A stretch of 64,000 nt of DNA from positions 32,001 through 96,000 of IMG/VR virus record IMGVR_UViG_3300005805_000050, one strand, 5' to 3'. Made by a program: the position numbers and the translations under genes. Positions within the stretch are counted from its first letter, which is position 1, and every line of letters starts with the position of its first letter. Shown piece after piece: positions 38,419-42,042 of the stretch. This stretch comes from a virus. Below the pieces are notes generated by a model. The model saw nothing but the letters and a program-made list of their open reading frames with translations, ran no database searches and had not been told where the DNA came from.

Positions 38419-38856
38419 ATGACACAATTAACTAAATTCGCAGGTTTTGATCTTGATCCATTCGATCTGTTGTGGAAGAATTTCATCGACCACGACTCAA
38501 GATTCAATACACTATTAGAAAAAGTAAACTATCCCACGGATATTTACGAAACCGCTGACGGCATCACATTCGAATTAGCCGTCGTTGGCCTCGACTCAAA
38601 AGACATCGTAATCGAAACACAGGGCGAGGTGCTGAGAATCAAGTACAACAAGGAAAAGCACGAAGACGAAACCAAGTACATTTACAAGGGCATCGCTAAA
38701 CGTTCTTTCGACCTTGCTTGGAAAGTATCTTCTAAATTCGACCTCCCCAAACTGGAAGCGCAGTTGGAAAAGGGTCTGTTAACCATTAAGGTTCCGTTTG
38801 CCGAGACTGCAAAAGCGAAAACGATTCAAATCAAAGAAATCAAGTCTCTAAATTAA
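38419..38856 (+). CDS. Small heat-shock protein Hsp20
   Basis: YPTDIYET, ELAVVGL, YIYKGIAKRSF and A.LEKGLLTIKVP...KTIQIK. Confidence 0.93.
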   Translation: MTQLTKFAGFDLDPFDLLWKNFIDHDSRFNTLLEKVNYPTDIYETADGITFELAVVGLDSKDIVIETQGEVLRIKYNKEKHEDETKYIYKGIAKRSFDLAWKVSSKFDLPKLEAQLEKGLLTIKVPFAETAKAKTIQIKEIKSLN

Positions 38857-38890
38857 GGTAAGGGGCCTGTCTTCCTTTATCGTTTAAGTT

Positions 38891-39088
38891 ATGCCATCTT
38901 TCAACATTACAAGAAACATCATAGAAGTCAACGATCAACTCTTCGAAGTCAAAAAGACTTTCAAGGAGGAGAGTGTTAAAGATCCCGTGGGACTCAAGGA
39001 GTTCTTCGGCTACGATGCCTTGTTTAAGAAAGATGGAGTGCTGTACTTTTGTAACCTAATTGTAGAACCAGAAATAGTAACCGATTAA
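38891..39088 (+). CDS. Small hypothetical protein
   Basis: 65 aa ORF between Hsp20 and GroES. Confidence 0.65.
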   Translation: MPSFNITRNIIEVNDQLFEVKKTFKEESVKDPVGLKEFFGYDALFKKDGVLYFCNLIVEPEIVTD

Positions 39089-39096
39089 ACAAACAT

Positions 39097-39390
39097 ATGA
39101 GTAAATTAACACCACTGAACGGAAACGTAGTGCTCAAGAAAGTAGAAGAGTCTGAGCAGACCTACGGACAAATTGTTATTCCAGACATGGGCAAGGAAAA
39201 GCCCGAACTTGGAGAAGTAGTAGCCACTAGCGAGACGTACAACTGGCACAAGGGATCTTTCACCAAATCAAATTTGGAAGTGGGACAACTTGTGTTGATT
39301 CCAAAAATGGGAGCGATGTCATTCTCTATAGACACAGAGGACTACATCGTCATTAAGGAAACTGAAGTATTAGCAATCGTAAAGAAATAA
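39097..39390 (+). CDS. groS: Co-chaperonin GroES
   Basis: LTPLNGNVVLK, IVIPD..KEKP..GEVVA and EDYIVIKETEVLAIV. Confidence 0.92.
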   Translation: MSKLTPLNGNVVLKKVEESEQTYGQIVIPDMGKEKPELGEVVATSETYNWHKGSFTKSNLEVGQLVLIPKMGAMSFSIDTEDYIVIKETEVLAIVKK

Positions 39391-39391
39391 C

Positions 39392-41014
39392 ATGAGCACA
39401 ACTAAAAACGTATTCGGCACAGAACTCAAGGAGAAGCTGTTGGCCGGCATAGAAAAACTAAACGAATCGGTTTCATCAACGCTTGGACCAGGCGGCCGCA
39501 CTGTTCTTATTCGCGAACCTAACGGAGAAGTGAAGATTACGAAAGACGGCGTCACGTGCGCTAAAGCGTTTCACAAACTGGAGGACGACATCGAGGACAT
39601 CGGAGCCCAATTGGTCAAACAGGTGAGTATCAAATCCGCTAACGAAGCGGGTGACGGTACAACCACTTCGACTCTCATCGCAACCGAACTCGTAAAAGAG
39701 GGTTTGAAGGAGATCAGAGGCGGAGCAAACGCTGTGGCTGTGAAGCGAGAATTGGATCGTCTAGCGTCAGCGGTTATCGAAGACATTAAGAAGATCGCCA
39801 TTGATGTCTCTTCAGAAGAACAGATCAAGCAAGTAGCAACCATCTCAGGCAACAACGACGAAGAGGTGGGTAATCTCATCGCTTCAGCTATCGATAAAGT
39901 TGGCAGAGAGGGCGTAGTTACTATCGAAGAGTCCAAAACTGGAGAAACCACGCTTGAAGCAGTAGAGGGTATGCAGTTTGAAAGGGGATACAAGAGCCCT
40001 TATTTCGTTACGAACAACACCACTATGCAAGCCGTGTTGGAAGACTGTTACGTCATGCTTTTCGACGGTCGAATTTCTACCGCTCAAGAGCTTTTACAGG
40101 TTCTGACAAAGGCCAATTCTGAAAGCAAACCGCTTCTCATCGTAGCTGAAGATTTCGGAGACGAGGCACTAGCCACTCTCATCGTAAATAAAATGAGAGG
40201 CATCGTACAAGTGTGCGCAGTGAAAGCTCCAGAGTTTGGCGAACGCAAGACGCTTGTACTCGAAGACATCGCTATCATCACTGGCGGTCAAGTCATATCG
40301 AAGGACAAGGGTCACAAGCTCGACAAGATTCCAGCAGCACAGTTGTCTCAATACCTTGGTAAAGCCCGCATGGTAACAGTATCTAAAGAGGATACTACTA
40401 TCGTAGACGGAAAAGGGTCGGCTGAAGCAATCGAAGCCCGTGCTAACGAGATCAAAGATCAAATTGAAAAAGCACAGTCGTTCTTCGAAAAGGAGAAATT
40501 ACAAGAGCGTCTTGGTAAAATGGTCGGAGGCGTAGCAGTGATTAGCGTAGGAGGAAATTCCGAGATCGAGATCAAAGAGAAGAAAGATCGATTGGAAGAC
40601 GCACTCTATGCAACTAAAGCGGCTCTCGTAGATGGAGTAGTGCCAGGCGGAGGAGCAACACTATTCCGCATTGCGCTGAAGCACAGAGGATGCGAGAGCA
40701 GAGAAGCCGATATTGCAGACGCCATTCTTAAAGACGCTATACAATCTCCTTTCAAGAAAATTCTACTCAACGCAGGTATCGAGAATTGGTGGCAAAACAT
40801 CCCCACTTCAGACAAAGACGTGTACGATGCAAAGTCGCACAAGCTTGTAGATGCATTTGAAGCAGGCATTCTTGATCCAGCTAAGGTCGTGATCACAGCT
40901 GTAAAAAACGCAGTATCGGTCGCAGGCACAATCCTCACTACTGAGTCCGTAGTCTTCGAGAAAAAAGACAAAGACGAAAAGGATAATCAGTCGGGAGGAA
41001 TGCCGATGATGTAA
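39392..41014 (+). CDS. groL: Chaperonin GroEL
   Basis: TLGPGGR, ITKDGVT, AGDGTTT, EGMQFERGY.SPYF, KAPEFG, GVVPGGG and GGMPMM tail. Confidence 0.98.
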   Translation: MSTTKNVFGTELKEKLLAGIEKLNESVSSTLGPGGRTVLIREPNGEVKITKDGVTCAKAFHKLEDDIEDIGAQLVKQVSIKSANEAGDGTTTSTLIATELVKEGLKEIRGGANAVAVKRELDRLASAVIEDIKKIAIDVSSEEQIKQVATISGNNDEEVGNLIASAIDKVGREGVVTIEESKTGETTLEAVEGMQFERGYKSPYFVTNNTTMQAVLEDCYVMLFDGRISTAQELLQVLTKANSESKPLLIVAEDFGDEALATLIVNKMRGIVQVCAVKAPEFGERKTLVLEDIAIITGGQVISKDKGHKLDKIPAAQLSQYLGKARMVTVSKEDTTIVDGKGSAEAIEARANEIKDQIEKAQSFFEKEKLQERLGKMVGGVAVISVGGNSEIEIKEKKDRLEDALYATKAALVDGVVPGGGATLFRIALKHRGCESREADIADAILKDAIQSPFKKILLNAGIENWWQNIPTSDKDVYDAKSHKLVDAFEAGILDPAKVVITAVKNAVSVAGTILTTESVVFEKKDKDEKDNQSGGMPMM

Positions 41015-41023
41015 ATTAGGGAT

Positions 41024-41131
41024 AGTCAGGTGGCGGAATTGGTAACGCACACGTAACGAGCTGATGTACACAGCACCCATAAAGAGAGTTACGTGGTGGT
41101 ATAAATACAGGTTCGAATCCTGTCCTGACTA
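41024..41131 (+). ncRNA. tRNA-like RNA with an expanded, structured anticodon arm
   Basis: Acceptor stem AGTCAGG/CCTGACT, D arm GCGGAATTGGTAACGC, 8-bp stem CACGTAAC/GTTACGTG enclosing 30 nt, T arm ACAGG-TTCGAAT-CCTGT, discriminator A, no encoded CCA. Confidence 0.8.
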
Positions 41132-41160
41132 CAAAAATTAGTTATGAAAAATAAAACAAC

Positions 41161-42042
41161 ATGTTCCTAAACAAAGCAACAGACCAGTCCAACTTGGACA
41201 CCGAGGGAGGCAGGGATTTGAACTACTACCTCGAGATGACCAAGGACTACAAACCCGATTTTGAATTCAAGGTAAAACAGTTGGAAGGGTTCAACGTCAT
41301 AGACGACGGAGAATTCCAATACGGTACCAAATCCAAGATGGGAGATTTCATGATCTCTCAAGTTAAAGAAGATACACTAGTATACGTGGCGCCGAGAACG
41401 GGATACGCGCCTTACTCTCTGACTTACCTCGCAAAGAAGTACAACAAGAAGCTTGTGTTGTTCATGCCCGCTTGCAAAGAAATCTCTGAACACCAACTGA
41501 GGGTCATAGAGGACGGAGCAACACCGATATTCATCAAGACGCCTGCAATGCCAACACTAAACTTATGGGCCAAGGAGTTCGCTAAGAAGACAGGCGCAAA
41601 GTACTTGCCCTTCGGTCTCAAGCACGAGCAGGTGGTTGCAGGCGGAGTGAAGATATTCTACGAGGCATTCAAAAACCAAAACATCGATACGATGTGGACT
41701 GTATTCTCAACTGGTGTGCTGTCCAGAACTCTTCAGATCGCGCTATCTAACACAGCCTTTAATGCTGTTGCTGTTGCAAGAAACGTTCAACCAGGCGAGC
41801 TCGGTAGAGCACACTTTTACAGCTACGATAAAGCATTCACAAAGGAAACCAAAGCCCACGTTCCATTCGATTGCATCAAAACCTACGACGCAAAGGGTTG
41901 GGAGTACATGAAAAAGTATGGCAAGGAAGGCGACTGGTTTTGGAACGTGGCTAGAAACATGCCGAAGGCCAGCATAAAGCCAAGCGATGTGGACTCTGAA
42001 CGCAAGTGGGGAGACAAGTCCGACATGGACAAGTACCTATAA
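41161..42042 (+). CDS. Putative PLP-dependent enzyme (fold type II / PALP-like)
   Basis: GTKSK (candidate Schiff-base Lys), LVYVAPRTGYAP, LVLFMP, VFSTGVLSR and YDAKGW resemble cysteine synthase/desulfhydrase-like folds. Confidence 0.55.
   Translation: MFLNKATDQSNLDTEGGRDLNYYLEMTKDYKPDFEFKVKQLEGFNVIDDGEFQYGTKSKMGDFMISQVKEDTLVYVAPRTGYAPYSLTYLAKKYNKKLVLFMPACKEISEHQLRVIEDGATPIFIKTPAMPTLNLWAKEFAKKTGAKYLPFGLKHEQVVAGGVKIFYEAFKNQNIDTMWTVFSTGVLSRTLQIALSNTAFNAVAVARNVQPGELGRAHFYSYDKAFTKETKAHVPFDCIKTYDAKGWEYMKKYGKEGDWFWNVARNMPKASIKPSDVDSERKWGDKSDMDKYL

Follow-up and report, generated by a model that had tools for sequence, protein, structure and literature searches.

A tRNA-Leu-type phage RNA element with a self-complementary tip loop

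Phage T5 encodes three RNAs, RNA1, RNA2 and RNA3 (T5s03, T5s06 and T5s07), which are annotated as 'tRNA-like stable RNA with unknown functions'. They are small RNAs located among the phage tRNA genes, on the same strand, and they combine an acceptor-like stem and a T arm with a long, non-anticodon interior. They share these traits with the elements described here, namely one located in the window (the whole 64-kb stretch of phage DNA that was analysed), its closest relatives (the subfamily), and a larger superfamily in which the same tRNA-Leu-type frame encloses other inserts. RNA1 carries a Leu-type D arm (CCGGAAUUGGUAGACGG), as in the frame, the T arm of RNA2 (GCAGGUUCGAAUCCUGU) corresponds to the G49 T-arm variant of some superfamily copies, and RNA2 also contains an inner T-loop hairpin like that of some superfamily inserts. 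The T5 RNAs differ from the element in scoring below the RF00005 cut-off, and no palindromic tip loop was seen in their folds, unlike in the window's subfamily. The species 1 and 2 RNAs of T4 (rnaC, 139 nt, and rnaD, 119 nt) are stable RNAs encoded at the distal end of the T4 tRNA cluster. A 3′ T arm and an acceptor-like stem are common to rnaC and the element, but neither rnaC nor rnaD has a Leu-type D arm or a self-complementary tip, and rnaC reached 17.2 bits with R1, the covariance model built here for the window's subfamily. Specific homology to rnaC, rnaD, RNA1 or RNA2 was rejected, since the R1 scores of the T5 and T4 RNAs (12.5-19.9 bits) were no better than those of ordinary tRNAs.

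Two further groups of RNAs resemble the element in single respects. The kissing loops of OLE, GOLLD and ROOL switch between palindromes in a way that is explicable only by the pairing of two chains, and GOLLD and ROOL are likewise phage RNAs encoded near tRNA islands (PMC12286853). These RNAs are 500-800+ nt long, are not tRNA-shaped, and form 2-, 8- or 14-mers through several bridges (PMC12286853), whereas the element has one predicted bridge on a 108-nt tRNA frame. The tRNAs of the Lak megaphages are over-long, tRNA-like phage genes as well, with conserved inserts, termed 'enigmatic introns', that were called by tRNA software in eukaryote mode (PMC6784885); they keep an assignable anticodon once the insert is removed, while the element yields none. 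YrlA (RF02553) is a Y RNA-like non-coding RNA of bacteria and phages with a tRNA-like module, and differs from the element in that the latter matched neither YrlA nor skipping-rope, DUF2693-FD or any other Rfam family beyond tRNA. The ends of YrlA reportedly lie in its Ro-binding stem, with the acceptor-like stem closed. Neither a Leu-frame family nor a self-pairing tRNA mimic was found in Rfam or in full-text literature searches.

Anatomy of the element and its leucine-type frame

The element is a 108-nt, tRNA-shaped RNA gene on the + strand (41024-41131), spanning position 1 to the discriminator A73. All of its parts, listed below, lie on the + strand, and the parts and coordinates given in a preliminary description of this DNA were confirmed base for base.

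41024-41030, +: 5′ strand of the acceptor stem, AGUCAGG, pairing with 41124-41130 (7 bp); base -1 is U
Between the acceptor 5′ strand and the D arm, +: U8 and G9, assigned from the sequence
41033-41048, +: D arm of tRNA-Leu type, GGCGGAAUUGGUAACGC, with A14, A15 and G18G19; A26 follows
41050-41057, +: 5′ strand of the extended 8-bp stem, pairing with 41088-41095 and enclosing 30 nt
41058-41059, +: two unpaired bases, GA, between the 8-bp stem and the tip hairpin
41060-41074, +: tip hairpin GCUG-AUGUACA-CAGC (4 bp), with the 7-nt loop AUGUACA at 41064-41070
41065-41070, +: palindrome UGUACA, the last six bases of the loop, read from the sequence
41075-41087, +: 3′ strand of the internal loop, ACCCAUAAAGAGA, 13 nt unpaired, with variants tallied among relatives
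41088-41095, +: 3′ strand of the 8-bp stem, supported by covariation
41096-41106, +: variable region, GUGGUAUAAAU, 11 nt unpaired according to sequence and fold
41100-41107, +: TATAAATA, overlapping the variable region
41107-41123, +: T arm ACAGG-UUCGAAU-CCUGU, supported by covariation
41124-41132, +: 3′ strand of the acceptor stem, CCUGACU, then A73 (41131) and C74 (41132), followed by AA

The Rfam tRNA model RF00005 matched the element over its full length (1-71) at 46.1 bits (cut-off 29, E 1.2e-6), with 42 nt inserted at the place of the anticodon arm. The canonical tRNA features that were present included the 7-bp acceptor stem, a D arm with G18G19, a 5-bp T stem and a UUCRANY-type loop; CCA is not encoded, as A73 is followed by CAA. 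A 5-bp anticodon stem with a 7-nt loop and U33 was absent from the tRNA position according to both Rfam and ARAGORN, and ARAGORN in its default mode called no tRNA at 41024-41131. The unconstrained minimum free energy fold was identical to the structure listed above. Within the internal loop, G41058·A41087 and A41059·G41086 could form tandem sheared pairs. The tmRNA reading was rejected, given that a D stem is present, that the element is only 108 nt long and that neither ARAGORN nor Rfam gave a tmRNA match. The preliminary description had likewise held that this is not a standard tRNA and not a tmRNA, and the match to a tRNA model without a valid anticodon is what it had anticipated. No tRNA-like match other than the element was obtained in the window, nor in the complete IMG/VR phage record of 122 kb. 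It scored 126.7 bits with R1, which found no other match in that record.

The frame is of leucine type. In five Bacteroidota metagenome-assembled genomes (MAGs), the consensus D-arm motif matched tRNA-Leu genes only, with up to three mismatches allowed. The D arm of the window is one base short of the family consensus GGUAGACGC, while the copy carries A73, A14, A15, G18G19 and the UUCGAAU T loop, and A73 is the discriminator of the frame in the window as well as in the copies that were read. The element resembles bacterial class II tRNA-Leu in its D arm sequence, A73, elbow nucleotides and T arm. In contrast to these tRNAs, it has a D loop one base shorter and no anticodon arm; neither a Leu anticodon nor a hairpin variable arm is present, the variable region consisting of 11 unpaired nucleotides. 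The acceptor stem also differs, reading AGUCAGG in the element and GCC... in host and phage tRNA-Leu, and the true tRNA-Leu genes located in the tRNA rows of the superfamily have an acceptor stem other than AGUCAGG.

The E. coli leucyl-tRNA synthetase (LeuRS) requires A73, A15-U48, G18G19, A20a and the elbow pairs; it needs neither the anticodon nor the variable arm, and still charges a tRNA-Leu from which both arms have been removed (PMC9976931). In the element, U48 is assigned by position only and A20a is uncertain and may be missing, because the D loop has one base fewer than that of tRNA-Leu. The choice of a tRNA body whose synthetase ignores the anticodon arm would fit retained charging, and would be just as consistent with a class II core in which additional arms are tolerated.

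Conservation of the subfamily and of its tip loop

Relatives were retrieved with a pattern spanning the variable region and the T arm in viral contigs, with a shorter variable-region/T-stem pattern in metagenomes, and with an independent pattern over the 3′ strand of the internal loop and the stem. The resulting subfamily, drawn from phage and metagenome contigs, comprised 70 copies, of which 52 were distinct; the copies scored 88-132 bits with R1, compared to 24-56 bits for other elements with the same frame. Across the 52 distinct sequences, 97.2% of the cells were paired and compensatory (double) changes were found in 18 of the 27 pairs, in an alignment that was fitted to the structure and thereby favours it, although the margin was large: none of 500 shuffles reached the observed level, and slid partners gave 1-7 pairs. 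A first, MAFFT-seeded set (n = 15) gave a similar pairing picture. Compensatory changes were found in the acceptor stem (99.5% of cells paired, double changes in 4/7 pairs), the 8-bp stem (96.4%, 7/8 pairs), the stem of the tip hairpin (3/4 pairs) and the T arm (99.2%, double changes in 2 pairs). The 3′ strand of the internal loop followed the pattern CC.(A/G)(U/A)AAAG.(A/G)A, and UAUAAA of the variable region was kept in every copy retrieved by the pattern that omitted this region. A pseudoknot between CCA of the internal-loop 3′ strand and UGG of the variable region was considered and is not supported, because GAUU and GGUU variants occur without a compensating change.

Two further features were observed in this subfamily. 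A minimal form of 82 nt is present in two TARA ocean contigs (L164:3159-3240 and L184:1136-1217), in which a CUUAAU-containing loop caps the long stem directly, with no junction or tip hairpin, and the variable region is unchanged. In addition, a gene fusing a ParB N-terminal domain to an N6/N4 DNA methylase lies approximately 200 nt downstream of L068-type members (L068:7763-8920 and 10 other loci).

The tip loop consisted of one free base and a self-complementary hexamer in all 52 distinct relatives. The hexamer was a perfect palindrome in 31 of them, of seven kinds (UGUACA, CUGCAG, CUCGAG, AGUACU, UAGCUA, CGUACG and UCGCGA), and self-complementary through G-U pairs in another 12, of four kinds (CUGCGG, CGUGCG, GGGCUC and UGGCUA); in the remaining nine the outer pair was lost, leaving the 4-nt cores UGCA, GGCC or UUAA. 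An internal mismatch was found in none of the 52. When the loops were shuffled (2000 trials), a mean of 1.3 out of 18 distinct loops contained a palindrome, with a maximum of 6. The energies of the bare hexamer duplexes ranged from -4.5 to -7.9 kcal/mol, with UGUACA of the window (-4.8 kcal/mol) at the weak end. A switch from one palindrome to another needs paired changes, and within a 7-nt loop pairing between adjacent bases is impossible, which points to the pairing of two identical molecules. Since the G-U-compensated hexamers are not palindromes at the DNA level, we infer that selection acts on RNA pairing. The same reasoning was applied to loops of OLE and GOLLD, and cryo-EM confirmed that they form intermolecular bridges (PMC12286853). 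Symmetric kissing loops are recognised by just such a pattern, and the tip loop thus probably mediates homodimerisation. The registers of the stem and the palindrome lie one base apart, which makes a kissing complex more likely than an extended duplex; an extended-duplex dimer was rejected on this ground.

Palindromes were not a general trait of the Leu frame. In 129 other elements with this frame, the interiors were depleted of 6-nt palindromes (47 versus 89 expected), and the predicted hairpin loops of the superfamily were not enriched in them (8 versus 6.4 expected), so that dimerisation would be a trait of the subfamily and not of the frame. CUUAAG was observed in an unpaired stretch or large loop of two other insert types (L011, L043, L067, L078 and L109), which provide no covariation evidence because each has a single kind of palindrome. 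At the DNA level, TGTACA was not avoided in the window (28 versus 30.6 expected), a count that is uninformative either way on restriction avoidance. Palindromes overall were not depleted there (913 versus 914 expected), while ATTAAT and TTTAAA were absent (0 versus 8.4 and 16.6 expected), which suggests avoidance of two specific restriction sites.

The leucine-type superfamily and the genomic context

The exact 3′ 22-mer of the frame, from the T loop to A73, was present in at least 120 IMG/VR contigs, often several times per contig. All the listed IMG/VR matches had the same frame, composed of the 5′ half AGUCAGG-UG-GCGGAAU(U)GGUAGACGC and the 3′ half ACAGGUUCGAAUCCUGU-CCUGACU-A-C, around an interior that was wholly different in sequence and length; among these matches, the elements measured from about 54 to 182 nt and the unrelated inserts 15-130 nt. 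In some superfamily copies the D loop is interrupted as well. L148:3151-3288, L149:168-294 and L199:1306-1432 have a second insertion there, of 20-60 nt and placed between GGCGGAA and GGUAGACGC, and a D-loop insertion is also present in the elements with 22-mer matches at L023:622, L064:4837 and L100:3897, indicating that modules can be accommodated at two positions in the frame. In a scan of 185,579 species genomes, the 22-mer was found in only 18 contigs, all of them from MAGs, mostly of Bacteroidota, and in no host tRNA gene; it was accordingly judged to be a phage sequence, and a host tRNA as its source was rejected. The isolate collection gave a single match, which is unannotated (MW202828.1).

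Superfamily elements are frequently found within rows of ordinary tRNA genes that share their strand. When 221 elements were compared together with their 350-nt flanks, both flanks were at least 85% identical in 68 pairs, and in 15 of these the interiors were less than 60% identical. For example, L168, a member of the window's subfamily, and the unrelated 70-nt element L069:1673-1742 have flanks that are 94.6% and 89% identical. One site carried five different inserts (L023, L067, L106 and L116; the insert of L067 also occurs in L078 and L109), and one exchange pair was found within the single locus L040. The near-identical halves of the frame would be the obvious recombination anchors for such exchange of inserts among phages.

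Several other arrangements were observed among these contigs. A T-loop-like inner hairpin (GUUCGAUUC, GGUUCAAUUCC) is present in several unrelated inserts (L030, L037, L055, L082, L023 and L088) as well as in T5 RNA2 (L247:5960-6084), and would add another elbow-type module to the one that the tRNA frame itself provides. On the - strand, L138:748-846 is a tRNA-like element with another acceptor stem (ACCGAGU...) and a non-canonical interior, showing that tRNA shapes without an anticodon are not confined to the AGUCAGG frame. Also on the - strand, a tmRNA match (RF00023, 49.2 bits) abuts a group I intron match (RF00028, 97.8 bits) at L009:7609-8193, adjoining frame elements on this phage contig.

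In the window, the element has the following neighbours.

39097-39390, +: groES (Pfam Cpn10)
39392-41014, +: groEL (Pfam Cpn60), with its stop codon 9 nt before the element
41161-42042, +: ORF of 293 aa, starting 29 nt after the element
Downstream of the 293-aa ORF: DUF6378, dUTPase, dCMP deaminase and TS-like genes

Hsp20, GroES and GroEL are encoded in a row (38419-41014). No terminator-like or sigma-70-like site was found on the + strand between 38881 and 42400, in a scan that covered promoters of the sigma-70 type, as distinct from the Bacteroidota type. Among the contigs compared, the groEL region was shared with one related phage only (L141/L150), in which the element is placed at a distance of 2.6 kb and opens a row of 15 tRNA genes, 5 nt before tRNA-Val and beside five other frame elements; a further contig, L155, covers only this tRNA row. 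The record of the window phage contains no other tRNA, and the tRNA-row setting known from the tRNA-like stable RNAs of phages was found in the related phage (L141/L150/L155). Conserved synteny with groEL was therefore rejected, the element being apart from groEL in the sole phage that shares the region, and the earlier proposal of a processing signal between groEL and the nucleotide module falls with it. A partner protein did not emerge either: when the 1,639 ORFs of about 155 loci were clustered all against all, no family extended to more than 16 loci, and the most widespread were terminase, DUF932, ParB-N6 methylase and T5orf172.

The immediate flanks resembled those of tRNA precursors. Position -1 was occupied by U in 42 of the 48 distinct flank pairs of the subfamily and in 113 of 133 superfamily copies, C74 was present in all 48 flank pairs, and CCA was encoded in only 4 of approximately 130 superfamily copies (131 listed). 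The flank preferences of RNase P and of the 3′ tRNA nuclease are established, and the combination of U-1, C74 and absent CCA fits cutting by these two enzymes followed by CCA completion. The 122-kb phage record yielded no gene for a CCA enzyme, a class I synthetase or RtcB, so that these activities would have to come from the host.

Interpretation and alternative readings

Taken together, the results indicate that the element is a real, conserved RNA gene, derived from tRNA-Leu and non-decoding. The explanation as a whole, in which a class II tRNA-Leu-derived, non-decoding RNA is processed, pairs with itself and acts as a tRNA mimic, has in our judgement slightly better than an even chance of being correct. 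The RNA would keep the features used in tRNA processing and charging (the 7-bp acceptor stem, A73, the Leu-type D arm with G18G19, the T arm, the elbow, U-1 and C74), and its anticodon arm would have been replaced by the 8-bp stem, the asymmetric internal loop and the 4-bp hairpin. Given the lack of signals around it, it would be co-transcribed with groES-groEL and the downstream genes; judging from frame and flanks, it would then be excised by the host RNase P and 3′ tRNA nuclease, completed by the CCA-adding enzyme and folded into an L shape. As the palindrome-to-palindrome covariation suggests, hexamers of two molecules would pair loop to loop, forming a rod whose two ends are both tRNA heads. 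By analogy with tRNA-Leu, each head might be bound, and perhaps leucylated, by LeuRS, with no entry into decoding.

The biological role is more tentative. It is possible, but well short of probable, that the RNA serves as a two-headed tRNA mimic and engages a tRNA-binding factor of the infected host by occupying, bridging or diverting it. Somewhat more speculative still is the notion of a new class of phage effector RNAs, built on a Leu-tRNA chassis with swapped modules, in which the module of the window's subfamily would create a two-headed tRNA dimer, or a larger assembly made of RNA only, that captures or bridges a tRNA-binding host machine; such a chassis would be host-processed and possibly leucylated, and the machine could be, for example, LeuRS, EF-Tu, RNase P or a tRNA-targeting defence enzyme. 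The preliminary description had recognised a non-standard, tRNA-shaped RNA other than tmRNA and had listed a tRNA mimic among the options, which remains the best class for an RNA that is tRNA-shaped and cannot be a standard tRNA. Its readings of a Tyr loop, an intron and a groEL-linked signal did not stand, and three points had escaped it, namely that the frame is of Leu identity, that the loop is self-complementary and that the family is large.

Of the other readings, the best surviving one, which we regard as unlikely, is that of a monomeric, tRNA-scaffolded RNA whose frame provides only processing and stability and whose loop is read by a dimeric protein or by a hexamer in another RNA. The dozens of unrelated inserts within the same frame, the lack of palindromic loops in the superfamily at large and the weakness of the UGUACA duplex are in its favour. 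The G-U-compensated hexamers and the complete absence of internal mismatches speak instead for pairing with an identical partner, and a hexamer target in other RNAs would be unspecific, as TGTACA alone occurs 28 times in the window.

It appears improbable that the element has no function in trans and constitutes RNase P/Z-cut punctuation between the groEL mRNA and the downstream genes, a selfish recombination anchor, or both. For such punctuation, an 8-bp stem, a tip hairpin and a self-complementary loop would be superfluous, yet compensatory change has kept all three in 52 distinct sequences, and the genomic context is not conserved. The spacing (9 nt from groEL and 29 nt to the next ORF), the lack of terminator or promoter matches around the element, the exchange of inserts at fixed sites and the frequency of neighbouring homing-endonuclease-type genes (T5orf172) are the observations that would agree with it.

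A function at the DNA level, in which TATAAATA would be a T4-type late promoter, the palindrome a protein-binding site and the RNA fold incidental, is very improbable. The motif at 41100-41107 matches the T4 late-promoter consensus, and the conservation of UAUAAA is independent of the search pattern. Nevertheless, relatives read TATAAATG or TATAAAAA where the window has TATAAATA, and of the ten copies in the window (versus 5.6 expected) eight lie on the - strand, which makes a promoter role of 41100-41107 unlikely. The downstream genes are, moreover, of the early, nucleotide-metabolism type, the G-U-compensated hexamers would be no palindromes in DNA, and the stem and palindrome axes are offset by one base. 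The eight minus-strand motifs (8981, 11563, 12155, 26098, 30918, 37432, 38319 and 46001) may themselves be T4-type late promoters.

Even less credence is given to the idea, raised in the preliminary description, that the element acts as a decoy whose Tyr-like loop is read by an anticodon nuclease or a synthetase. Although the window loop AUGUACA does place U33-G-U-A at the right loop positions, relatives carry CUGCAG, CUCGAG, AGUACU, UAGCUA, CGUACG or UCGCGA at the same loop, so that no anticodon is mimicked, and the hairpin lies 8 bp and a junction away from the anticodon-arm site. An intron-bearing tRNA or a decayed pseudo-tRNA is the least credible reading: ARAGORN with the -i option did force a tRNA-Ser(CGA) with a 29-nt intron at 37/38, and Lak megaphage tRNAs with 'enigmatic introns' offer a precedent (PMC6784885), but the spliced loop AACGAGU lacks U33, a Ser identity is contradicted by A73 and by the missing long variable arm, the supposed anticodon bases lie in covarying stem pairs, Rfam gave no group I intron match, and decay is excluded by the conservation of the structure through compensatory changes in 52 distinct sequences.

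The tRNA-like stable RNAs on the maps of T4 and T5 have had no assigned function to date. The subfamily of the window would give RNAs of this type a concrete and testable molecular property, self-pairing through one predicted kissing loop, and it places them in a very large, modular, phage-only family (at least 120 IMG/VR contigs versus 18 MAG contigs among 185,579 species genomes). In genome annotation, ARAGORN overlooks such genes, or they are mistaken for intron-bearing or odd tRNAs. If dimerisation or charging is true, the element would represent a new phage route to the tRNA machinery and a tRNA-sized addition to the recently discovered natural RNA-only assemblies.
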